Source: Lachnospiraceae bacterium (GTDB lineage: Bacteria; Bacillota; Clostridia; Lachnospirales; Lachnospiraceae). Taken from it: a DNA stretch of 64,000 nucleotides. The notes below the pieces were generated by a model. That model worked only from the letters and a program-made list of their open reading frames with translations. It had not been told where the DNA came from and searched no databases. The stretch lies in the NCBI GenBank assembly GCA_014804755.1, contig JAAUZE010000008.1:100109-164108 (forward strand), read 5' to 3'. Positions 997 through 20,580 of the stretch are shown piece by piece; the first letter of the stretch is position 1; every line of letters starts with the position of its first letter. Made by a program: the position numbers and the translations under genes.

Positions 997-2106
997 ATGG
1001 AGGACATGATGCTGGAAAGCGCCCTGTATCAGGAGGATCTGAAAAAAATAAATGAGGTCGTCTTTTCGGGAGAGGAACTCGAACAGAAAAATGTTTTGAT
1101 CACGGGAGGAACCGGCCTGATCGGTTCCTGTCTTGTCGATGTGTTACTCTTCAGAAATGAACATCTGGGAACGCATATCGGTATCTGGGTGCTGTGCCGC
1201 AATGAGGCGCGCGCGAAAGAGGTATTCGGAACCTATTTGGATAAAGAATACTTTCACCTGATCGTTCAGGACGTTTCCGTACCGCTGCCGCCGGATGCTC
1301 CGAAATCCATGGACTATATCATTCACGCCGCAAGCAAGGGAGATCCGAACAGCTTTGTCACAGATCCGCTCGGTGTGATGAATGCGAATGTATTAGGAAT
1401 GCATTGGCTTTTAGAATATGCGAAGCAGGTAAAAGTAAAAAAAATCCTATATCTGTCCAGCGGGGAGGCATACGGAAAGGTGGATCTGCCGGAGGATCTT
1501 CCAATCTCAGAGACAATGACGGGGCTGCTTGACAGTCTGAAAGTCAGAAACTGTTATGGCATTTCAAAACGGGCGGCGGAGACGATGTGCGTCAGTGCGG
1601 CATGTGAATATCAGGTTCCGGTATGCATCGCAAGATTGTGCCATATCTATGGACCGACCATGACGACGGGTGAAAACAGAGTGATTTTTCAGTTCCTCCG
1701 GAAAGCATTGGATCAGGAGGAAATTGTATTAAAAAGCGAAGGGCTTCAAAGGCGGTCTTACTGCTATGTGGCGGATGCGGCGGCGGCACTGTTTACGATC
1801 CTTTTCCGGGGCGCTCCGGGGGAAGCTTATAATGTGTCGAATGAAAAATCCGTCGTGACGATCCGCGGGCTTGCGGAAATCCTCGGCAGCTATGCGGGAA
1901 GCGGCGTAAAATATGAACAGCAGACAGAGTCAGAGCGCAGAGGAAATTCCGGCATTATGCACGCGGTGCTTGATAATCAGAAGCTCTTAGAGCTCGGCGT
2001 TCGTATGGAATATGATATGGAGGCCGGATTAAAGAGGACGTTGGAAATTATGAAGGAGCAAGAAGATGAAAAAAGAAATCGGGATTGTCATATGCAATTA
2101 CAATAA
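997..2106 (+). CDS. NAD-dependent epimerase/dehydratase (SDR family)
   Basis: ITGGTGLIGS Rossmann motif and YGISK (YxxxK) catalytic motif; the alternative ATG at 1009 has better SD spacing. Confidence 0.75.
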   Translation: MEDMMLESALYQEDLKKINEVVFSGEELEQKNVLITGGTGLIGSCLVDVLLFRNEHLGTHIGIWVLCRNEARAKEVFGTYLDKEYFHLIVQDVSVPLPPDAPKSMDYIIHAASKGDPNSFVTDPLGVMNANVLGMHWLLEYAKQVKVKKILYLSSGEAYGKVDLPEDLPISETMTGLLDSLKVRNCYGISKRAAETMCVSAACEYQVPVCIARLCHIYGPTMTTGENRVIFQFLRKALDQEEIVLKSEGLQRRSYCYVADAAAALFTILFRGAPGEAYNVSNEKSVVTIRGLAEILGSYAGSGVKYEQQTESERRGNSGIMHAVLDNQKLLELGVRMEYDMEAGLKRTLEIMKEQEDEKRNRDCHMQLQ

Positions 2107-3391
2107 ACAGGACTATGTGCTCAAATGTCTGGAATCTTTATTTGCTTCTGATACGGACGATTTTGATGTCTACGTCGTGGACAACGCATCGCAGGATGAT
2201 TCCGTAAAACTGATCAGAGAACAATTCGGGGATCGCGTAACGCTTTTGGTCAATCAGGAAAATCTGGGCGGCTCCGGCGGGTTCAACACAGGACTCAGAA
2301 AAGTGCTGGAGAGCGATTACAAATATTTGATGTGCGTGGATAACGATATTGTATTTGCTCCCGATGCGGTCAGCGCGCTGCGCCGCTTTTTGGAGGAGCA
2401 CGAGGATACGGCGGTGGTAGGCAGCAAAGCGTACTTTATGGACGAGCCGGATAAGATCTGGAATTTCGGCGGGATCATCCGCTTTGATACCTTTATTCAG
2501 CAGGATCAGCATAAAAATTGTATCGATGCGGGACAACTTCCGGAGGTGGTATACGGCGATTATGTTCCCGCCTGCTCTCTGATGGCGCGGGTGGATGCGG
2601 TCAGGAAGGTCGGTATCATGCCGGAGGATAATTTTATTTATTGGGACGATATGGAATGGGGGTATCGATTCCGGCAGGCAGGCTATAAGGTCGCGTCCTA
2701 CGGAAAATCGAAGGTGTGGCACAAGGCCGGGGGCAGGAATGCGGGAAACACCTTTATTCATTACTATATGTGGCGGAATCGGATTCATTTTTTCAGACAG
2801 TTTCTTCCGCCGGAGGACAGGGAACGTTTTGCGGAAAGTCTGCTGACAGAAATGTTCCGAATGATCTATAGCGTCAACCTAAAAGGAGAGACGAATATCA
2901 TACGGACGCTCATGTATGCCTTTGACGACGCCGTACACGGAGTAAGGGGAAAAGCAAAAGAGGGAAGAATTCTGCCAAGGCCTGCCGTGGCGAACCGGTT
3001 AGAGCAGGCATTGTCGGGAAAAGAAAGCGTGCTGATCCGATTTAACGGAAGCTTTGAGGGGATCGGAAACATTATCAAAAATATACGGAAAACCCTGCCG
3101 GATATGCGGATCGCGATTTCCACGGCGGACTGTCCTGAGCAAGTGAAAGAGCTGACAACGCAGTATCCGGACTGTGAAGTCACGGAGCGCTATGAGCCGG
3201 AGAAATTTGCGGCCCATCTGGTCATGTGCGAGCATATTTTTAAGCTGTCACCGGACATGGAAAAGGACTGTTATATCGATCCGTGGTGCAACCTGATCTA
3301 CACGGCAAAAGATTTTATCTATGCCAGCAGCTTTGAGCAGACCAAGGATTTGTTTGTGCTGTGTAAGAAAGAGCTTTTGTGCGGCGATTGA
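2066..3391 (+). CDS. Family 2 glycosyltransferase
   Basis: IGIVICNYNK...VVDNAS(Q)DDS...CVDNDI GT2 motifs; paralog of 4972..6294. Confidence 0.8.
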   Translation: MKKEIGIVICNYNKQDYVLKCLESLFASDTDDFDVYVVDNASQDDSVKLIREQFGDRVTLLVNQENLGGSGGFNTGLRKVLESDYKYLMCVDNDIVFAPDAVSALRRFLEEHEDTAVVGSKAYFMDEPDKIWNFGGIIRFDTFIQQDQHKNCIDAGQLPEVVYGDYVPACSLMARVDAVRKVGIMPEDNFIYWDDMEWGYRFRQAGYKVASYGKSKVWHKAGGRNAGNTFIHYYMWRNRIHFFRQFLPPEDRERFAESLLTEMFRMIYSVNLKGETNIIRTLMYAFDDAVHGVRGKAKEGRILPRPAVANRLEQALSGKESVLIRFNGSFEGIGNIIKNIRKTLPDMRIAISTADCPEQVKELTTQYPDCEVTERYEPEKFAAHLVMCEHIFKLSPDMEKDCYIDPWCNLIYTAKDFIYASSFEQTKDLFVLCKKELLCGD

Positions 3392-3421
3392 AAGCGGACG
3401 TAAAGTATGGAGGAGGAAAGC

Positions 3422-4847
3422 GATGGATCCGGTTGTAGTATTTGGCGCAGGAACCGGCGGGAAGATCGTGAAGTGGATGCTGAATGATTTTGGTATTCCG
3501 GTCAGGGCCTTTACGGATAACGGCAAGGATAAGTGGGGTACAATACTGGACGGGATTCCGGTGATTCCTCCGGATTCTTTATATGATGACGAAAGCAGGA
3601 TTGTGATCGCAAGCACCTGGGAGAGTGAGATCAGGAAGCAATTGACTGAAATGGGATTGAAAGACCGTGTGGTTGAGAAAGAGGTCTTTATGTATCAATA
3701 CCTGGAACAAAGCGCGGGGGTATATTCCGACCTTTCCGGGTATCCGATCGACAGCAGTAAAAAGCCAACGTTTTTATTCGGCACGGATCTCGGGTTATAC
3801 CAGGGCGGCGTGGAGAGCTGGACCTATACGGTAGCGGACGAGTTAAGAAAAAGGGGATACGGGATCAAGATTCTGACCAATCAGACCTCGCAGCCTGCAC
3901 CGGAACGGTTTCAAAACGACACCTATTATCTGAATATGCGGGGGCGGGAATATTGCAGTGGTTTACGTGATACAGTCCATGTGATCATGGAAAATGCGCC
4001 CTGCGTGGTCATTGATTCCTGGCAGAGCATGACGATGCTTGCGGCGGCAATCGTGAAAAGGCAGAATCAGGTTGCTGTTCGACAACTGATAGAGATAGTA
4101 CATAATAATCTGCCACGGCTCTTTGGAATCGTGAAGAAATTTGAAGCTGAGATCAATGCCTGTATGGGAGTGAGCAGGGATATTAATCGGAGTCTGGTCG
4201 AAGAATATCAAATGGCGCCGGAGAAGGTGCATTATAAAGAGAGCCCGGTAAAATATGATGCAGGCATAGGGCGGGATTATATGTCTGACGAGAGTCAGCC
4301 GCTTCGGATCGGGTACGCGGCGAGGTTGTCGAAAAGTCAGAAAAGGGCGGATTTACTGCCGGAATTGATGGACAGACTGATGGAACGCAAGGTTCATTTC
4401 CGCATGCAGATTGCCGGAAGCGGAGCTCTGCGCGATATGATTCAAAACCATATCACGGAAAAGGGGTACGCGCAGTTTGTGTCCCTTACAGGCTATATTC
4501 CAAGGGAAGAGATGAATCGTTTTTGGAGCAGTCAGGATATTTTTATTAATCTGTCCGAATACGAAGGCACTAGTCTGTCAATGTTGGAGGCGATGGGGAA
4601 CGGATGTGTTCCGATCGTTACGAAAGTCGCCGGATGCGAGGAGTTTGTCGCAGAGGACATGGGATATCTCTGTGAAATCGGTGATCTGGATGCCATGGCG
4701 GAAAAAATTGCATATCTTGACCGGCATAGAGAAAAGCTTGGGCAGATGGGACAGAAAGCGTGTGAATCCGCTAGAAGAAAATGCAGTGTGGAAGCATATG
4801 TGGATCATCTGCTGGGATTGACGGCTGAGGGCAGGGAAAAGGGATAA
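3422..4847 (+). CDS. Glycosyltransferase family 4 (GT-B fold) with N-terminal Rossmann-like extension
   Basis: C-terminal EAMGNGCVPIVT...E GT4 motif; strong RBS GGAGGAGG before ATG 3422; N-terminal VVFGAGTGGKIV domain. Confidence 0.7.
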
Positions 4848-4971
4848 GTTTATACTGCCGTAGGCGGTACGAGTGAAGAATATTGAATAGCCGGGAAATA
4901 TTATGAGGCGTTGCAGGAAGGCATGAGAGAGCATTGATTGTACTGTTAAACGTGTATATAGGAGGCTGCGC

Positions 4972-6294
4972 ATGGGCAAAAAAATTGGTATCGTCATTTG
5001 CAATTATAATAAAAAACAATTTGTATTATCGTGCATCCAATCAGTACTGGATTCAAGCAGAAAGGATTTTGACGTCTATGTGGTGGATAATGCCTCGACG
5101 GACGGCAGTGCGGACGCGGTGAAAGCGGCATATGGAGACAGGGTCATTCTGATTCAGAACGAGCAAAACCTCGGCGGCAGCGGGGGATTCAACACGGGAC
5201 TCCGCGCGGCAAGGCAGACGGGATACCCCTATTACATGTGCGTGGATAATGATATTGTGATGGATGAGCATAATATTGAAAACCTGCTTTGTTTTTTAGA
5301 AGAGCATCATGAGGTGGGAATCGTCGGTTCCAAGATCTGCCGCATGCAGCACCCGGAACGGCTCCAGGAGCTTGGAGCGCGGCTGGATTTTGAAAAATGC
5401 ACACATGTTCCTTATTATAAAGACCATTTAGACAATGAGGATATCCCGGAGGTGCAGGATTGCGATTATGTTCCGGCCTGTTCGCTGATGGTTCGGGATG
5501 AGGTGATCGATAAGATCGGGCTGCTCCCGGAAGAAAACTTCATTTATTGGGACGATATGGAATGGTGCTATAAGGCAAAGCTTGCGGGGTATCGGGTTGC
5601 GGCGTACCGACAGGCGAAGGTGCTGCATGATATGGGAACCAATTCCGGGGATACGTATTTTTCTACTTATTATTTCTGGCGAAACAGAATTCGTTTTTTT
5701 GCGAGGTATACACCGCAGGATCAAAGAGAAGCAGCGATAGGAACCTTGCTGGAAAATGTTTTTCAGACCATGTACGGCTGTTATTACAAGGGGAAGACAA
5801 ATCAGATTTCCATTATGATGCATGCGCTTGACGATGCGATTCATCATCTCACAGGGAAGGCGGCCGAGGGAAAAATCCTGCCGAAGGATGCGATCGAAGA
5901 CCGGGTGGCAGGATTGTTTGAGACCTATCATAATGTGGTCGTTGAATTTAACGGGGATTACAAGCTGCTTCAGGATATTGTGAAAAAGATACAAAAAGCG
6001 GAGACGGAAGTTTCTCTGCGGATTGTCAGTGACGATGCGGAGGAAGTGCAAAGACAATATCCGGAATATCCCGTTATAAAGAGGGATCAGGTGTCAATCG
6101 AAACGGTTGAGGACTTAAGCGTGTTGTGGCTTGCGATGTGTGAGCATGTATCCAAAGTGGAGGATCACAGCCTGAAAAAGGTTTATATTGACCCGTACAG
6201 TAACCTTTTGGAGAATGAGCGGGATTTGCAGCATTTTGCGGGGTATCAATATAATAAGGATTTGTTTGTGCGCATGTGGAAGGTGCTGCTGTAA
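4972..6294 (+). CDS. Family 2 glycosyltransferase (paralog)
   Basis: Same GT2 motifs as 2066..3391, roughly half identical along the whole length; RBS AGGAGG. Confidence 0.8.
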   Translation: MGKKIGIVICNYNKKQFVLSCIQSVLDSSRKDFDVYVVDNASTDGSADAVKAAYGDRVILIQNEQNLGGSGGFNTGLRAARQTGYPYYMCVDNDIVMDEHNIENLLCFLEEHHEVGIVGSKICRMQHPERLQELGARLDFEKCTHVPYYKDHLDNEDIPEVQDCDYVPACSLMVRDEVIDKIGLLPEENFIYWDDMEWCYKAKLAGYRVAAYRQAKVLHDMGTNSGDTYFSTYYFWRNRIRFFARYTPQDQREAAIGTLLENVFQTMYGCYYKGKTNQISIMMHALDDAIHHLTGKAAEGKILPKDAIEDRVAGLFETYHNVVVEFNGDYKLLQDIVKKIQKAETEVSLRIVSDDAEEVQRQYPEYPVIKRDQVSIETVEDLSVLWLAMCEHVSKVEDHSLKKVYIDPYSNLLENERDLQHFAGYQYNKDLFVRMWKVLL

Positions 6295-11998: not shown

Positions 11999-12181
11999 GG
12001 AAATGAGCCGTTGCCCGCCGTGGGTGGCGGCTCATTTTGGCAGTTTGATGAAAGATTAAGAAGCAAAGGTCAAAAATATTTTTTTTTGAAAAACGAGAGA
12101 AAGTTTTGCGGTTACAAATCGCAAAACGCATTGATTTTGAGAGAGAATAAGGGTATACTTTTCTTGGAGAGGGGTGATTAC

Positions 12182-13393
12182 ATGATAGATAGGCCAATGT
12201 ATATTGATAAAGTGATGGCGTATACGGATGCGCCTTTCGTTAAAATTCTTACGGGTGTCCGTCGATGCGGTAAGTCTACCATACTTAAAATGATCATGGA
12301 GAGGCTGCGCGATGAAAGAGCCATACCGGAAAGTCAGATCGTTAGTTATCGGTTCGATTCGATGGAATATGAAGACATGACTGCAAAGCAGATGTATGCA
12401 GAATTGAAAAGCAGACTCAGCACGAACGGGAGAACTTACTTTTTTTTGGATGAAATACAGGAAGTTTCGGGTTGGGAAAAGGTTGTCAATTCTTTGGTAT
12501 CGGATTTTGATGTGGATTTGTATGTTACCGGGTCAAATTCTAAAATGATGTCTTCAGAGATATCTACGTATCTAACGGGAAGATATATTGCTTTTCGAAT
12601 TTACACACTGTCTTTTCAGGAGTATTTGACATTCAAAGGTCAGCATACTCTGCTAAAAGATACGAGAACGGAACTGGCAGATTATATTCGGCGTGGTGGT
12701 TTTCCGGCCGTTCATCTTCAAGACTATAGTTTGGATGAAATAGATACGATTGTTCGCGACATCTATAATTCCACGATTTTTTCAGATATTGTAAGGCGGA
12801 ATCAGGTTCGCAAGATTGACCAATTAGAGCGCGTTGTGAAATATACATTCCATAATGTAGGAAATACATTCTCAGCAAAATCAATTTCAGACTATTTGAA
12901 GGCGGAGCGCAGGTCTTTGGATAATGAGACGGTATACAGTTATTTGGAGAAACTGGAAAAGGCTTATCTGCTACATCGTTGCTCACGTTATGATTTGCGG
13001 GGCAAGGAAATATTGAAAACACAGGAGAAATTTTATTTGGCAGATACGTCGCTTCGCTATAGTGTTTTGGGATATCAGGCTAATATGACAGCATCTAGTC
13101 TTGAAAATATCGTCTATTTGGAATTATGCCGCCGTGGATATACGGTATATATCGGAAAGACAGACGATGGGGAAGTGGACTTTGTCGCAGTTCGCCAGAA
13201 TGAGAAAGTTTACGTTCAGGTTACGCAGAAGATTGATTCGGAAAAGACAGAGGAGCGGGAATATAAACGGCTGTTGGAAATTCGGGACAATTATCCGAAA
13301 TATGTGTTGCGGACAGATGAATTTGCCGAGGGTAATTATGATGGAATTAAGACGATGCATGTGGCGGATTTTTTGTTAAGTCAGGAATACTAA
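12182..13393 (+). CDS. AAA-family ATPase (DUF4143-type)
   Basis: Walker A GVRRCGKST, Walker B FFLDEIQ; architecture typical of DUF4143 ATPases; RBS GGAGAGGGG. Confidence 0.7.
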   Translation: MIDRPMYIDKVMAYTDAPFVKILTGVRRCGKSTILKMIMERLRDERAIPESQIVSYRFDSMEYEDMTAKQMYAELKSRLSTNGRTYFFLDEIQEVSGWEKVVNSLVSDFDVDLYVTGSNSKMMSSEISTYLTGRYIAFRIYTLSFQEYLTFKGQHTLLKDTRTELADYIRRGGFPAVHLQDYSLDEIDTIVRDIYNSTIFSDIVRRNQVRKIDQLERVVKYTFHNVGNTFSAKSISDYLKAERRSLDNETVYSYLEKLEKAYLLHRCSRYDLRGKEILKTQEKFYLADTSLRYSVLGYQANMTASSLENIVYLELCRRGYTVYIGKTDDGEVDFVAVRQNEKVYVQVTQKIDSEKTEEREYKRLLEIRDNYPKYVLRTDEFAEGNYDGIKTMHVADFLLSQEY

Positions 13394-14393: not shown

Positions 14394-14654
14394 ATGGCAC
14401 AGGCAATGATTAATTTTCGGATGGATGAAGAATTAAAAAAGAATATGGAAGAAATTTGCAAAGATTTAGGATTAAGCATGACAACCGCATTTACTATTTT
14501 TGCAAAAAAAATGACAAGAGAAAAAAGAATTCCGTTTGATGTATCGTTAGATCCGTTTTATTCAGAAAGTAATATGTCATATTTGAAAAAGGTAGTAGAC
14601 GATATTGAATCAGGAAAATCGGTTCTTTCTGAGCATGAATTACTCGAGGATTAA
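14394..14654 (+). CDS. Type II antitoxin, RelB/DinJ family
   Basis: 86 aa, INFRMDEELKKNMEEICKDLGLSMTTAF ribbon-helix-helix; 4 nt upstream of the YoeB toxin. Confidence 0.7.
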   Translation: MAQAMINFRMDEELKKNMEEICKDLGLSMTTAFTIFAKKMTREKRIPFDVSLDPFYSESNMSYLKKVVDDIESGKSVLSEHELLED

Positions 14655-14657
14655 TGC

Positions 14658-14921
14658 ATGAAGATACTTTGGGAGGAGCGCGCCTGGGAAGAATACTTAG
14701 AGTGGCAGATACAAGACAAGAAAACATTAAAAAGGATTAATGCTCTCATCAAAGAGATACAAAGGAACTGCTACGAAGGGATTGGTAAGCCGGAACCATT
14801 AAAAAATAATTTAAGTGGGTGGTGGAGCAGGCGTATTGATGAAGTAAATCGAATTGTTTATAAAGAAAAAGATGGAGCGGTTATTATAGCATCATGCAAG
14901 GGACATTATGAGGATACATAA
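14658..14921 (+). CDS. Type II toxin, YoeB/Txe family
   Basis: MKILWEERAWEEYLEWQ...GWWSRRIDEVNRIVY...HYED matches the YoeB fold signature. Confidence 0.75.
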   Translation: MKILWEERAWEEYLEWQIQDKKTLKRINALIKEIQRNCYEGIGKPEPLKNNLSGWWSRRIDEVNRIVYKEKDGAVIIASCKGHYEDT

Positions 14922-14953: not shown

Positions 14954-15820
14954 TTAGAAATTGTTGTGCCGCAAATAGCATCGAAACGCTTCCGCAACAT
15001 ATTCCGCAGAACCGGTGCCGTTTTTGGTGTCAAAAACGGATCTCAAATAGTCAGTGGAATAGAGATCGATGATCAGGCGGCAATAATTGGCCTGATCGCC
15101 GACCAATTCAGATGGGGCGTTTCCCTGTGCGCGGGCGATGATTTCCTGAACGATTTGCTGCACCTCATCTGAGGAAACGTCCTTTTCTTTATTGGCGGCC
15201 AATTTCACAAAAAGATCCTGCTTCATTTCTTCGGGGATTTCGGAAACCCATTTTTCCATGATCTCTGAAAAATGAGCCAGATTTTCTTTCATCGCCGCGG
15301 TATACGCTTCCATGCTGCCGAACTGTTTGATAGCAAGCTTTGCGACGTTCGGTTCGTCGTCCTTGATTTTTTGAATAAACAGATCATAATTCTCTACACT
15401 GCCCCAGTATTTGATCACCTCATTGGTATTGCGATTCTTGAACTCCTCCAACGCATGAATATAATCGGATAAGTCAAATTCCTTGAAACTCATACAGTTT
15501 TCTCCTTTCTCTAAACGGTCAAGGAGCTGTATCAGCCGGTCTGTGCGGTTGCGCTTTAACAGAAGCAGTTCTTTTTGCTTTTTGAAAGCAGCGATCCTGT
15601 CAAAATCGGGCTTCTCCAATATATCCCGGATATCCTTTAGCTTGAAACCTAATTCCTTGAAAAATAAGATCTGCTGTAATGTCTGTAACGCTTCATCATT
15701 GTACAGGCGGTAACCGGACGGCGTTGTTTCGCTTGGCTTGAGCAGTCCGATTTCGTCATAATACTGCAATGTGCGTACACTGACGTTGGTCAATTTCGCA
15801 ACTTGGCTTGTGGTCCGCAT
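14954..15820 (-). CDS. MerR-family transcriptional regulator
   Basis: N-terminal MRTTSQVAKLTNVSVRTLQYYDEIGLL HTH; start set at the MRTT methionine. Confidence 0.75.
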   Translation of the reverse strand: MRTTSQVAKLTNVSVRTLQYYDEIGLLKPSETTPSGYRLYNDEALQTLQQILFFKELGFKLKDIRDILEKPDFDRIAAFKKQKELLLLKRNRTDRLIQLLDRLEKGENCMSFKEFDLSDYIHALEEFKNRNTNEVIKYWGSVENYDLFIQKIKDDEPNVAKLAIKQFGSMEAYTAAMKENLAHFSEIMEKWVSEIPEEMKQDLFVKLAANKEKDVSSDEVQQIVQEIIARAQGNAPSELVGDQANYCRLIIDLYSTDYLRSVFDTKNGTGSAEYVAEAFRCYLRHNNF

Positions 15821-15977
15821 GGGAATCAACTCCTTGCCGATCAGGATTGCGGAATGGTTTCGCAATCACTTGTGGGTTTATAGCCAATCAAAACAGGCTT
15901 AACATATCGTAGGAAGCAGGAAGGAACTGCCGGCCGGTATCATTACTGCTCTCCTGAAAAAAGAATACCGTATCACG

Positions 15978-16790
15978 TTACGTTGAAGTCAAGAGTTTTT
16001 TTGCCACAAAGAGAAAATGATTTGTCTTTCCAAGGTGCTCCGGTTTTTCACAATAAAAGAGGTGCAGTTTCAAATATTGCGCATATCCGGCATCATCAAG
16101 CTGATTGATTCGATCCTCCAATAATTCACTCATGCCGTCTGAGGCGATTTCGTGAATGATAGTAAGATCATTACGGGTGAGCATTTCACGACATTGATTT
16201 AGGTTAAAAAATACAAATGGGAAATTAACTGTTTTGAACGTTTCCCTATCATACTCACCGGTCAGAAGATAGTCCGGGTTATAGCCCCATTCCGTGTAGT
16301 GGAGCATGTCATTATTAATAAAAGCGACAAACAGGGTACCGTCTTTTTTCAACACTCGTTTCGCTTCCCTAATTGCTGTGTTCCGATCCTTTTCATCGTG
16401 CAAATGATAAAGCGGACCGAATAACAGGACAATATCAAACGTTTCATCGTCAAAATCGGATAGGTCGAGAGCGTTTCCCTGTCTGAGATCAATCGTAAGA
16501 CCGTCAGTTATCTTTTCACGGAAATCCGCCACGTTTTTATCCGCAAGTTCAACCGCATTCACGTGGTATCCCTTATTTGCAAAATAAAGACTGTACTCCC
16601 CGGCGCCTGCTCCGAGATCAAGAATTTTCATGCCCTGTTTTAGATATTTTTCAATATATGTGATCGTAGTCGTAAACTCAACTCTGGCTGCATTACTGCA
16701 GTTTAATCTGGATTTTTCATCAAAAAAATGGTAAACAGCATTCACGAGTTCCGCATCGTTCTTGATTTTTTTCAGTTCATTCAGATCCAT
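15978..16790 (-). CDS. Class I SAM-dependent methyltransferase
   Basis: ILDLGAGAGEYS motif I. Confidence 0.7.
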   Translation of the reverse strand: MDLNELKKIKNDAELVNAVYHFFDEKSRLNCSNAARVEFTTTITYIEKYLKQGMKILDLGAGAGEYSLYFANKGYHVNAVELADKNVADFREKITDGLTIDLRQGNALDLSDFDDETFDIVLLFGPLYHLHDEKDRNTAIREAKRVLKKDGTLFVAFINNDMLHYTEWGYNPDYLLTGEYDRETFKTVNFPFVFFNLNQCREMLTRNDLTIIHEIASDGMSELLEDRINQLDDAGYAQYLKLHLFYCEKPEHLGKTNHFLFVAKKLLTST

Positions 16791-17516: not shown

Positions 17517-17713
17517 ATCGTCGGTTCCTTTCCTTGATAAGCCCTGTCAATCTGGTCTGTTTCATAAAATCATAGCATACTCGCGTTCATATTTCTATAA
17601 CAGTATTGATAAACTGGAATTTTCATGGTATTTGATCGTGAAAGAAATCAGATGGACAACCAGTGTGCGCAATTGCATAATGATTAAAAAACAAAAGAGG
17701 AGCGTGTCTGATT

Positions 17714-18640
17714 ATGAATACGTTACATTGTTGCATGAGGGAATATTTGGAATATTGTCATTATCGGAAGCGGTTGGATTCCAAGACATTGAAGGCTTAT
17801 CGTATTGACTTAAAACAGTATGAGGATTTTTGCGCCGGGGTATCTGATTGTTTTTCCCAAAATGCGGTGGACAATTTTATCACCTGTCTGCACAAACGGT
17901 ATAAGCCCAAAACGGTCAAGCGGAAGATCGCAAGCTTAAAAGCCTTTTTTCATTACATGGAATATAAAGAAATATTGCATGAAAATCCGTTCGTAAAGCT
18001 GGACGTCCGTTTTCGGGAAGCGAAGCTCTTGCCTAAGACCATTCCGTTTCATTCGATACAGGCATTTCTCTCTGCCATCTACACACAAAAAGAACAGGCA
18101 AAATCAGAATATCAGCGGCGATGCTGCGTCAGAGATATTGCCGTGATGGAGTTATTGTTTGCGACAGGAATGCGGATATCGGAGTTGTGTTCGTTAAAAC
18201 CCGCGGATATAGACCTTGAGAGCAATAACATTTTGATATACGGAAAAGGTGCAAAAGAGCGGATGATCCAGCTTGGTAATCGGGAGGTAATCGCTGCGTT
18301 GGTACAGTATCGGGAGACATTTAGAGAGGACATAGAGGTTTGCGGGTATTTTTTTGTGAATCGGTTACAGCATAAGCTATCCGATCAGTCGGTCCGTTTT
18401 ATGATCAATCACTATGCGGAGCTTGCGGGCATCACGCAGCACATCACGCCGCATATGTTCCGGCATTCTTTTGCCACACTTTTATTGGAGCAGGACGTCG
18501 ATATCCGCTATATTCAAAGGATGCTTGGGCACAGCTCCATTAGCACGACGGAGATTTATACGCATGTGTCGAACGCAAAGCAGAAGGATATTTTGGTGCG
18601 CAAGCATCCGAGGAATTTGATGGAGGTGAATGGAGGATAA
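17714..18640 (+). CDS. Site-specific tyrosine recombinase (XerC/XerD-like integrase family)
   Basis: Catalytic box ATGMRISE...HMFRHSFAT...LGHSSISTTEIYTHV (R..H-R-H..Y); stop codon lies inside the left 67-bp inverted repeat. Confidence 0.85.
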   Translation: MNTLHCCMREYLEYCHYRKRLDSKTLKAYRIDLKQYEDFCAGVSDCFSQNAVDNFITCLHKRYKPKTVKRKIASLKAFFHYMEYKEILHENPFVKLDVRFREAKLLPKTIPFHSIQAFLSAIYTQKEQAKSEYQRRCCVRDIAVMELLFATGMRISELCSLKPADIDLESNNILIYGKGAKERMIQLGNREVIAALVQYRETFREDIEVCGYFFVNRLQHKLSDQSVRFMINHYAELAGITQHITPHMFRHSFATLLLEQDVDIRYIQRMLGHSSISTTEIYTHVSNAKQKDILVRKHPRNLMEVNGG

Positions 18641-18700
18641 TAAGAAATTATCTATTGAATAATGATTTGTATATTGTGAAAAACACCAATTTATCGGAGG
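18634..18700. repeat. Left copy of perfect 67-bp inverted repeat
   Basis: Exact reverse complement of 20587-20653, compared base by base; inner end is ...TTATCGGAGG, supplying the SD for ATG 18706. Confidence 0.9.
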
Positions 18701-18705
18701 TTGAT

Positions 18706-19383
18706 ATGCATGTTCCTAAAGACGCTATTTTAATGCTATCTGGAGTATCATGTGTTGGAAAAACAACTGCAGCGTATGAGATAGTGAAGAATTATCCTGA
18801 ATTTAGAAGAGTAAGTGAATATGATTTGCTGAGAACAGTTGTGCGAACCGCATATGAATGTTTGGCTGAAGAAGCTTATATAGACAAGGATGAATTAATA
18901 AGTAAATATCATGCGTTGTTTGAGTCTATTACAAATAGCAATTTTGAAATTACCAAGTTACAGTCAGAACAATTACTTCCCTACGTTAAGGAGATAATTC
19001 TCAGACAACAAAGGCGACGGATACCAACTATAATAGAAGGTACTGGTATTATACCAAGCGCATATTTTCCTAATAATCAGCCATTAGCATGGTTATCAAA
19101 ACACGTAGTATTTATTAATCTATATATCTCTGACGAGGAAGATCACATTTCCCGAAGACAATCGCGTTCGGAGGAACGTGATTATCATGAATCGGCCAGT
19201 AAAACAGAAATAATTATTTCCCAATCTAGAGCAGGAAAAAATCAGTTATTACATATGCAGGCAATTAAGTTGCAGCAAAAATTTAAAAATGTGTTTAGCT
19301 TGGATGTTTCAAATTATACTCCAAGTCATATGGCAAGCAAAATAATGGAACTTGTTTTTGATTATTTTGATACCTATAACTAA
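18706..19383 (+). CDS. P-loop NTPase/kinase-like protein
   Basis: Walker A SGVSCVGKTT and Walker-B-like IIEGTGII; ATG 5 nt after the GGAGG provided by the inverted repeat; the ORF track's upstream TTG start falls inside the repeat. Confidence 0.6.
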   Translation: MHVPKDAILMLSGVSCVGKTTAAYEIVKNYPEFRRVSEYDLLRTVVRTAYECLAEEAYIDKDELISKYHALFESITNSNFEITKLQSEQLLPYVKEIILRQQRRRIPTIIEGTGIIPSAYFPNNQPLAWLSKHVVFINLYISDEEDHISRRQSRSEERDYHESASKTEIIISQSRAGKNQLLHMQAIKLQQKFKNVFSLDVSNYTPSHMASKIMELVFDYFDTYN

Positions 19384-19392
19384 CAATATGAC

Positions 19393-20580
19393 TTATATAT
19401 CGTACAATTCGTTGTAGAGCTTTTCGGTCAAGGGAACCGCTTGTTCCCATACGTTTAAAAATGTATCATAAAGATGTTTTCCACGGCTTTGTATATCATT
19501 TTCGGAAATTTCTATTATTTCAAATGAAGAATTAGTAATTTGGAGAGGGTATCCTTCGCTGTCACATATTATTGGACTATAAAGCACGGCGTTATCACTT
19601 ATGATTATAGATTCTTTGCGTGGGCATTTGTATAGCCTAATCATTTCGCTTATAGGCAAGTGAAATCTATTTTGCATCCTAACAGCCGCTTCCAAACAGG
19701 TTTGTAAATCTGCTAAGAATCTCCTCTCTTTGTCTTTGCTTACAGCTTTGGTCATAGCTTCGCTTTTTGGATGTGGAAATAGACATTTAAAATCCACCCC
19801 ATTATTTATTCCTTCAATGGCTAGATACTTAAAAAAATCATCATTTTCACCTGTAAATATTTTTTTATTCCTTCTGCCATAAAACCATAAACGTTTGCCT
19901 TGATAATCAATTACATTTCGAATAAGTATTTTCGTAAGAACGCTGGTTGAAAATCCTTTATGAAAAAGAATATGCTCCTTGGTTATTTCAGGACTAACTA
20001 TTGTGAAATTTCCATGGTTGTCCTTCATAATTTGCTCAACCAAATCTCTGCAAGTGTCGGGAATCATTTGTTCACGTTGCAAGATCATTTTAACTTCTTT
20101 TATATATGCATTCCAGTGACTATTGAAGTTTTTGATATCTGTATTAGAATCTTTTGCCAATTCTTGTAAAAAACGTTTGAATTCCTCTCGTGATTTCTTA
20201 AAATTATCATTTTCATTATTTAAACGTATAGGGACATAACGATTTAGAGGTTTATCTACCCATGATGACCAATCGGGAATATGTTCAAATAATATTGGTA
20301 TAACTATACTTCCTCCTGGCTCTGCAAAATGTGCACCATACACTACACCTGCTTCATACATTAACCAAGGATTCTTAAAATTATCTGATGTTATACAAAC
20401 GATACATTTATCACTTCTCAAAAGATTATTATGTATTTCATTATCAACGGATGTCCCTTTATACATATCGGGAGAAAAAAACACTTCAATTTTATTTTCT
20501 AATGTATTCAAGATGAATTTTTTTGTTTCTAATGCTAATAATTTACTTTTATCTTTTGACCAGCTAATAAATATTTCCAC
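19393..20580 (-). CDS. TIR-domain protein with uncharacterised ~250-aa C-terminal domain
   Basis: N-terminal FISWSKDK...VFFSPDM...CIVCITSDNFKNPWLMYEAG matches the TIR S-x-x-[FY]-x-x-S-x-W-[CL]-x-x-E motif including the catalytic Glu; GTG start 6 nt after the repeat-encoded GGAGG. Confidence 0.7.
   Translation of the reverse strand: MEIFISWSKDKSKLLALETKKFILNTLENKIEVFFSPDMYKGTSVDNEIHNNLLRSDKCIVCITSDNFKNPWLMYEAGVVYGAHFAEPGGSIVIPILFEHIPDWSSWVDKPLNRYVPIRLNNENDNFKKSREEFKRFLQELAKDSNTDIKNFNSHWNAYIKEVKMILQREQMIPDTCRDLVEQIMKDNHGNFTIVSPEITKEHILFHKGFSTSVLTKILIRNVIDYQGKRLWFYGRRNKKIFTGENDDFFKYLAIEGINNGVDFKCLFPHPKSEAMTKAVSKDKERRFLADLQTCLEAAVRMQNRFHLPISEMIRLYKCPRKESIIISDNAVLYSPIICDSEGYPLQITNSSFEIIEISENDIQSRGKHLYDTFLNVWEQAVPLTEKLYNELYDI

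Follow-up and report, generated by a model that had tools for sequence, protein, structure and literature searches.

What are a TIR-domain gene and a small kinase gene doing tail to tail inside a segment of DNA that is bounded by perfect inverted repeats and adjoined by a recombinase gene? The question is raised by a locus in a 64,000-nucleotide stretch from a Lachnospiraceae bacterium (contig JAAUZE010000008.1, positions 100,109 to 164,108 of the forward strand), which we call the window and whose own positions serve as coordinates below. A first, sequence-only reading of this DNA had singled out the two genes as a candidate TIR-based module in a potentially invertible cassette. The anatomy of the locus and its comparative genomics are solid. 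As to what the locus is, we put the chances at about even that the TIR and kinase genes form, together with the recombinase gene, a self-contained programmed-inversion module of ~3 kb, that is, a phase-variable conflict system, probably an anti-phage one of the abortive-infection type.

The cassette is a segment of ~2.0 kb in which two convergent genes, the kinase gene on the plus strand and the TIR protein gene on the minus strand, lie between perfect inverted repeats. Its left arm (18634-18700, plus strand) is 67 nt long and 100% complementary to the right arm (20587-20653, minus strand), and this pair is the only long inverted repeat in the window. Read toward the cassette, both arms open with the core site GGATAATAAGAAATTATCT (18635-18653 at the outer end of the left arm, as read from the sequence) and close at the inner end with GGAGG, a Shine-Dalgarno motif found at 18696-18700 in the left arm. 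The pattern of the core, GGATAAT-N5-ATTATC (19 bp), occurs within the window in these two arms only; ~0.2 matches would be expected by chance, and none of 100 shuffled sequences reached the observed count. The kinase ATG lies 5 nt past the left arm and the TIR GTG 6 nt past the right arm, and the stop codons of the two genes are 9 nt apart. No intrinsic terminator fits this 9-nt gap between the convergent genes, where the local folds are AU-rich and weak. A promoter inside the 67-bp repeat was considered and rejected, as neither inspection by eye nor a scan gave a convincing -35/-10 pair. The GC content of the cassette is ~0.32-0.34, compared with 0.41-0.46 in the flanks.

The adjoining gene encodes a XerC/D-like tyrosine recombinase of 308 aa (17714-18640, plus strand; Pfam Phage_integrase, E 8e-42; Phage_int_SAM_1, E 1.5e-8). 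Against NCBIfam it scored E 3e-73 with XerD, short of the equivalog cutoff, and E 2e-18 with models of tyrosine-type DNA invertases, and its translation displays the R, H-x-x-R and H...Y catalytic motifs. The stop codon of this gene falls inside the left arm, such that the gene reads straight into the left repeat, and a scan found no terminator-like site between the recombinase and kinase genes. Inverted repeats with a conserved core next to a tyrosine recombinase gene are features of programmed DNA inversion, and the locus has both.

Inversion of a homologous cassette is observed in nature. Loci L032 and L034 come from a series of Logan assemblies and represent a single species; they encode an identical TIR protein in cassettes that are 99.9% identical, with both flanks exchanged and reverse-complemented at 99.5-99.8% identity. 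One of these flanks contains an insertion sequence (IS) element and the other a ThsB_TIR gene, a PNP_UDP_1-STALD gene and the recombinase gene; ~13 contigs of the species show one state and 5 show the other. Because the identical cassette stands in both orientations between identical flanks in one species, the cassette is inverted at this homologous locus. The two loci differ by an A/G in the outer half of the core, and this difference remains attached to the flank; the crossover therefore takes place at or inside the core spacer. When locus L005 is compared with the window, the recombinase gene aligns in the same direction (77% nt identity) and the cassette aligns reversed (85%). What had been called potentially invertible has thus been borne out, by the 67-nt perfect repeats and by both orientations in a related species, and has become the central feature of the locus. 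At the window's exact locus, the perfect repeats and the behavior of the family suggest that inversion takes place as well.

The same unit is found repeatedly in gut Clostridia. The TIR protein and the kinase, used as separate queries, returned ~95 clusters each, and the convergent pair, in which the TIR domain is fused to the PLD-like domain described below (TIR-PLD), was found in 19 genome and 16 metagenome loci, down to ~30% identity and with flanking inverted repeats of 21-133 nt. A family core, RRATAAY-N5-RTTATY, which is a 19-bp imperfect palindrome, marks both ends of the cassette, in inverted orientation, in more than 20 loci, where it lies ~40-50 nt from each start codon; it is absent where the TIR-PLD gene is not in a cassette. 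The 3' ends of the pair abut or overlap in all loci checked (-14 to +21 nt). In most loci the ribosome-binding site is within or just inside the repeats and a tyrosine recombinase gene is adjacent. This recombinase gene reads into the kinase gene in five lineages (the window, L013, the L022 group, L049 and L052), into the TIR gene in five more (L004, L005, the L054 group, L060 and L044), and is divergent in four (L007, L009, L010/11 and L064). Roughly 35 of 94 TIR homologue clusters are on contigs of 1.9-2.05 kb, the distance from repeat to repeat; assembly graphs would be broken in this way where the repeat exceeds the k-mer. Phage, plasmid and IMG/VR viral-contig collections gave no full-length cassette match, a result on which a phage- or plasmid-borne element was rejected and which neither supports nor excludes a role in defense.

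Long perfect arms of 103-133 nt are present in L049 (3362-3494 and 5493-5625), L052 (1480-1582 and 3564-3666) and L003 (4882-4994 and 6881-6993), and these hold two or three tandem cores with differing 5-nt spacers and a TATAAT box between them. Cassettes with such arms look nested in successive site pairs, and the outer core of L052 is the single core of the L022 group. Locus L003, from a Butyrivibrio sp. metagenome-assembled genome (MAG), has a cassette 89% identical to that of the window between 113-nt repeats, and a methyltransferase gene reads into its kinase side. In L063, a second invertible-looking cassette (2014-4712) stands beside the TIR/kinase one, with a 28-nt perfect inverted repeat, the core AAATAACAAACAATTATTT and a convergent pair of genes whose products are a pentapeptide-repeat protein of 491 aa and a protein of 391 aa that matches nothing in Pfam or PADLOC. 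Signs of decay were seen at two loci: an insertion of roughly 1.5 kb separates the TIR and kinase genes of L055 (~4700-6270), and the TIR gene of L062 (3507-4691), which is probably a pseudogene, aligns in three overlapping frame-broken pieces.

The TIR protein (395 aa, minus strand, GTG at 20580 to stop at 19393) begins MEIFISWSK, and its first ~130 residues (20191-20580, minus strand) match Pfam TIR_2 above cutoff, and not ThsB_TIR. The best structural match of this domain is SpbK, a Bacillus abortive-infection TIR protein. The codon for Glu76, at the catalytic position, is found at 20353-20355 (minus strand) within NPWLMYEAG. This residue is invariant in 29 homologues spanning 37-91% identity and falls opposite the Glu of the SxWCLxEL motif in a plant TIR (7xoz), in a profile match that is weak (E 0.14). 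Together, the Pfam match, the likeness to SpbK and the invariance of E76 uphold the initial description of a minus-strand 395-aa protein with an N-terminal TIR domain and a conserved Glu. The domain carries an NADase-type Glu and is probably of the NAD+-cleaving type. In PADLOC, the TIR-TM model matched the N-terminal 172 residues only, over profile positions 1-163 of 293, and the part of the protein outside the TIR domain is predicted by the structural model to be a soluble alpha/beta domain.

This second domain (~aa 196-395; 19393-19995, minus strand) is joined to the TIR domain by a helical linker (~aa 131-195). The sequence-only reading had recognized no motif here, and that much stands: with permissive thresholds, residues ~196-395 still matched no sequence in Pfam or PDB, and no Pfam PLD family at E 10. 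What the region can now be called is a PLD-like fold without the HKD His and Lys, one that is common to other effector fusions. Its model matched SauUSI (10.9), TrmBL2 (9.6), phosphatidylserine synthase (9.6), Nuc (9.2), FAM83A (9.1), PLD (9.1), Zucchini (8.8) and NucT (8.5). The fold is that of PLD; the HxK(x)4D motif is absent, with no conserved His or Lys at the HKD position. The conserved polar residues are G235-R236-x-N238, D263, R321, D329 and T349-N350, and G235, R236, D263, Y317, D329 and T349 are invariant. D329 and N350 appear to map onto the HKD Asp and Asn, an assignment that comes from reading the sequence and not from superposition. An active HKD nuclease or phospholipase was rejected, given that neither His nor Lys is conserved. 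Since the HKD site of this PLD fold lacks both residues, the domain is likely a non-catalytic, regulatory module that senses a ligand or target or that oligomerizes.

A profile of the PLD-like domain searched against 1.84 billion representative proteins identified 149 clusters at 50% identity. The N-terminal fusion partner is mostly TIR, with GT4-conflict in 3 clusters, Metallophos in 2 and PNP_UDP_1 in 1. The domain is not confined to invertible loci, because the Metallophos-PLD-like protein P0216 stands outside any cassette. At L046 (4001-6232), a 743-aa Metallophos-PLD-like protein has an extra C-terminal ~230 aa, and its gene belongs to a co-directional row that includes an AIRS-family gene and GAPDH; this locus has no repeats and no kinase gene.

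The partner gene (ATG at 18706 to stop at 19383, plus strand) encodes the 225-aa P-loop protein anticipated by the sequence-only reading, with the Walker A motif GVSCVGKTT and the motif IIEGTG. The Walker A Lys19 codon is at 18760-18762 (plus strand). Residues invariant among its homologues are the Walker A motif, an E38-x-D40 pair, RQQ, IIEG and four LID-type arginines. The fold, the Walker A motif and the LID arginines are those of a nucleoside monophosphate (NMP) kinase-like protein, and we infer from the fold that it is a small-molecule kinase. It belongs to no named family among AAA_33, AAA_18, adenylate kinase, 2-phosphoglycerate kinase and nicotinamide riboside kinase, as all Pfam and NCBIfam scores were under the cutoffs; as to the substrate, the last three gave sub-threshold hints only. 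A PDB profile search with the kinase returned nothing better than E 0.009.

Are the two proteins partners in function as well as in position? Three variant loci bear on this. Namely, P0195 is a single 589-aa protein composed of a TIR domain, a PLD-like domain and a kinase, the last of which is 33% identical to the kinase of the window (E 2e-28). Its gene faces another TIR-PLD gene in an invertible segment of 2.9 kb, with a recombinase gene on one side and a PNP_UDP_1-STALD gene reading in from the other. On a 2.6-kb contig, a GT4-conflict-PLD-like protein is encoded convergently with a kinase homologue (E 8e-18) between repeats of the same kind (core plus GGAGG), GT4 being known from earlier work on conflict systems of bacteria as an effector domain (PMC8195603). 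Finally, L016 has a distant, non-invertible TIR-PLD gene that shares 4 nt with the end of a guanylate-kinase-family gene running in the same direction, to which it is translationally coupled. The fusion, the GT4 cassette that retains the kinase and the coupled operon argue that the effector-PLD protein and the P-loop kinase act together in the same cell, with the N-terminal domain as an interchangeable effector. The kinase, first noted as the sole partner within the cassette, is indeed the convergent partner there; it would be better described as a functional one, fused in P0195 and kept when GT4 replaces TIR.

The company that the cassette keeps elsewhere is of the Thoeris kind. A PNP_UDP_1-STALD gene, encoding a ThsA-like nucleosidase with a STALD/SLOG sensor, adjoins the cassette in L032 (4963-6978), L044 (6934-8526) and L011 (3486-4763), and in the L032 lineage a 170-aa ThsB_TIR gene stands beside it. 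These flanking Thoeris-like genes read into the cassette in two of the three lineages (L032 and L044). By analogy, the effector repertoire, SpbK as the closest structure and Thoeris-like neighbors in three lineages suggest a role in defense, probably against phage.

How might inversion control such a pair? We propose that the recombinase would flip the segment by recombination between the two cores. Because the cores lie between any outside promoter and each ribosome-binding site, with no room for gene-specific promoters, a flip would make the two genes trade places between co-transcription with the recombinase and transcription from the other flank. One of the two contexts would be read-through from the recombinase operon, where a promoter-like site, TGGACA-17-CATAAT (17653-17681, plus strand), is found upstream of the recombinase gene; it is a candidate only, with 10 of 12 matches in a consensus scan. 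The other would be the far flank, where the scan found a candidate outside promoter, TTGAAA-17-TACAAT (20800-20772, minus strand), which points into the right arm. A weak hairpin with a T-tail (20688-20672, minus strand) follows downstream of this candidate, toward the right arm, and the leader at this flank folds no better than shuffled sequences (z -0.46). Since the 3' ends abut without a terminator, each transcript would also be antisense to the other gene, which could sharpen the asymmetry. The kinase, for its part, may make or remove a phosphorylated small ligand that is sensed by the PLD-like domain, which in turn would control the TIR NADase. Inversion would then shift the effector-to-kinase ratio and create "armed" and "safe" subpopulations.

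Carried to its full extent, this proposal describes an undescribed class of immune module in which whole-gene, shufflon-like inversion is a control layer over an effector-sensor and its kinase, each cell lineage is armed or safe, and the format can be exchanged between docking sites and can carry other pairs. We offer this broader version tentatively and regard it as possible rather than probable. Several observations count against inversion as a regulatory switch in defense. The window's own locus is on record in a single orientation (the window and L001). In the best-sampled close relative (P0007), 10 of 10 contigs among the matches listed share that orientation, which leaves no evidence of within-species inversion there. 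In the close relative L003, the 5 kb to each side of the cassette contain no recombinase gene. In L049, L052 and L003, the upstream signals are identical on both sides, and inversion at the inner cores would be nearly silent, save for read-through from the flanks. Promoter-like sites in the region are no commoner than in shuffled sequence, so the candidates named above are to be taken as consensus matches. The window's neighbors are GNAT, methyltransferase, HAD hydrolase and kinase-like genes, with no obvious defense island. The last two observations of this kind concern mobility: cassettes 89-92% identical to that of the window have unrelated flanks and recombinases only 46-58% identical, and come from MAGs assigned to different families, and the second, unrelated repeat-bounded pair of L063 fits a process of capture and exchange.

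One alternative is a switch that strictly selects one gene or the other, as in a shufflon or Mu-G: only the gene on the recombinase side is made, and TIR-PLD and kinase are alternative products that never act together. The identical ribosome-binding sites inside the repeats, 5-6 nt from both starts, would suit it, as would convergent, abutting genes without a terminator, in which one transcript is antisense to the other. L044 has the classic gene-swapping layout, its alternatives being paralogous TIR-PLD proteins with the repeat over their first five codons. We nevertheless consider such a switch rather unlikely, and it is disfavored by the variant loci, as the TIR-PLD-kinase fusion and the coupled, co-directional operon of L016 argue that both activities are needed simultaneously in one cell. 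Moreover, candidate promoters or co-directional genes enter from both sides in the window, L013, L022 and L044, and where the repeats are long, each side has its own copy of the upstream signals.

Less likely still, in our estimate, is that the cassette is primarily mobile, captured at recombinase docking sites or swapped from one to another by a double crossover that involves both cores, with inversion a by-product that has no regulatory role. Beyond the near-identical cassettes in unrelated surroundings and the additional cassette of L063, this would account for the long arms with their two or three tandem cores and different spacers, as if nested, and for a cassette GC content of ~0.33 between flanks of 0.41-0.46. 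However, both orientations are found at one site in one species with nearly identical sequence, the ribosome-binding sites lie within or just inside the repeats in most loci, and no excised or empty-site forms were seen; nor are regulation and mobility mutually exclusive. Some bacteria use TIR proteins against host signaling, and by this analogy the locus could be a phase-variable module of NAD/nucleotide metabolism or of host interaction, without any part in anti-phage defense. Phase variation is typical of host-interaction factors, the loci with the unit come from gut bacteria, and the genes around the cassette in the window are not known defense genes. This we judge the least probable of the three, because neither protein has a recognizable secretion signal or membrane segment in models, the replacement of TIR by GT4-conflict, PNP or Metallophos is a signature of intracellular conflict systems, and Thoeris-like genes are recurrent neighbors.

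If the locus is a phase-variable conflict system, is it one that is already known? The expectation of the sequence-only reading, that the pair would match no characterized system, agrees with the comparison against PADLOC, in which the TIR domain alone found a domain-level match; neither the kinase family nor the C-terminal domain is modeled in PADLOC (2023), and neither gave a match. The literature searched contains no description of a TIR-PLD/kinase system, and Pfam and PDB sequence searches turned up no such system. Thoeris membership was rejected for the window itself, which has no ThsA-like gene: tblastn with two PNP_UDP_1-STALD proteins found nothing in its 64 kb, and PADLOC on the eight genes neighboring the cassette gave no Thoeris match. 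With Thoeris, SpbK, TIR-STING and TIR-SAVED, the cassette shares a TIR domain with a catalytic Glu, and ThsB_TIR/SLOG genes flank some of its relatives. In contrast to these systems, the window has no ThsA/SLOG, SIR2, STING or SAVED partner, the TIR is fused to an HKD-less PLD-like domain, a P-loop kinase is the conserved partner and the whole unit is invertible.

As an inverting element, the cassette has equally familiar company. The R64 Rci shufflon uses a tyrosine recombinase, and in both R64 and phage Mu G/Gin the inverting segments lie between short inverted core sites. The hsdS invertons of Type I restriction-modification systems likewise combine tyrosine recombinases with inverted core sites (PMC7672463), and gene-altering inversions provide a precedent for the layout of programmed inversion (PMC9881135). 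The R64 Rci/sfx shufflon, Mu G/Gin and the hsdS invertons resemble the locus in their adjacent site-specific recombinase, short inverted cores, convergent units and coexisting orientations. Unlike a shufflon, however, the cassette swaps complete, non-homologous genes with their own start codons, to which the repeat supplies the ribosome-binding site, and there is no constant 5' exon. The layout is not one in which alternative C-termini are exchanged, as the arms end 5-6 nt upstream of both starts, and the arms of L044 cover only the first five codons. In contrast to all three, its cargo is an effector and kinase pair, and not a specificity subunit or a tail or pilus tip.

In the Clover system, composed of the CloA dGTPase and the CloB nucleotidyltransferase, a partner enzyme makes a regulatory small molecule or nucleotide for a toxic effector (PMC12265719), which provides a precedent for the proposed role of the kinase. 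The cassette resembles it in its pairing: one protein is an effector that carries an allosteric or regulatory module, and the other is a small enzyme for nucleotides or small molecules. It differs from Clover in having a P-loop kinase rather than a nucleotidyltransferase and a TIR rather than an HD dNTPase, and in its invertible convergent arrangement, whereas the Clover genes form an ordinary operon. The PLD/HKD pseudo-enzymes, such as the C-terminal domains of the TrmB family and FAM83 (DUF1669), have no detectable sequence relationship to the PLD-like domain of the cassette, which unlike them forms a small family (149 clusters) attached to conflict effectors. What appears to be new here is the combination of a TIR conflict system with programmed inversion, together with an undescribed sensor-like domain and a constant kinase partner.

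Should this hold, the locus would represent a new candidate defense family with a novel sensor-like domain outside the families of Pfam, a dedicated small-molecule kinase and interchangeable effectors. Whole-gene inversion of a toxic immune effector would be a possible means of balancing, at the level of the population, the cost of autoimmunity against protection. The recombinase and its 19-bp core would also form a compact system that flips, and perhaps exchanges, 2-kb cassettes in gut Clostridia, and it may serve as a genetic tool. Discovery pipelines that rely on gene neighborhoods likely under-detect such loci, because they break short-read assemblies into repeat-to-repeat contigs of ~1.9-2.0 kb.

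Around the cassette, the genes preceding the recombinase gene include MerR, methyltransferase and GNAT genes. The MerR gene (mad1, E 2e-12) and the S-adenosylmethionine (SAM) methyltransferase gene (mad2, E 2e-20), at 14954-16790, were considered as a MADS system and rejected as generic matches of helix-turn-helix and SAM-binding domains; the weak mad8 matches of some kinase homologues are likewise due to the generic P-loop domain only and are not MADS. Just to the left of these genes are a RelB/YoeB toxin-antitoxin pair (~14394-14921) and an AAA_14/DUF4143 ATPase gene (12011-13393), with coordinates converted from L001. On the other side, at a distance of 3 kb, another small P-loop protein of 158 aa (23453-23929; Walker A GTTCCGKTT) with no Pfam match is encoded among GNAT, HAD, DUF4037 and phosphatase genes, and as far as tested it is unrelated in sequence to the cassette kinase. 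Finally, the leader of the recombinase gene contains ATTGCATAATGATT (17672-17685), which overlaps its candidate -10 box and resembles the inner arm part ATTGAATAATGATT at 18654-18667; this likeness may reflect a remnant third half-site or a shared regulatory element.

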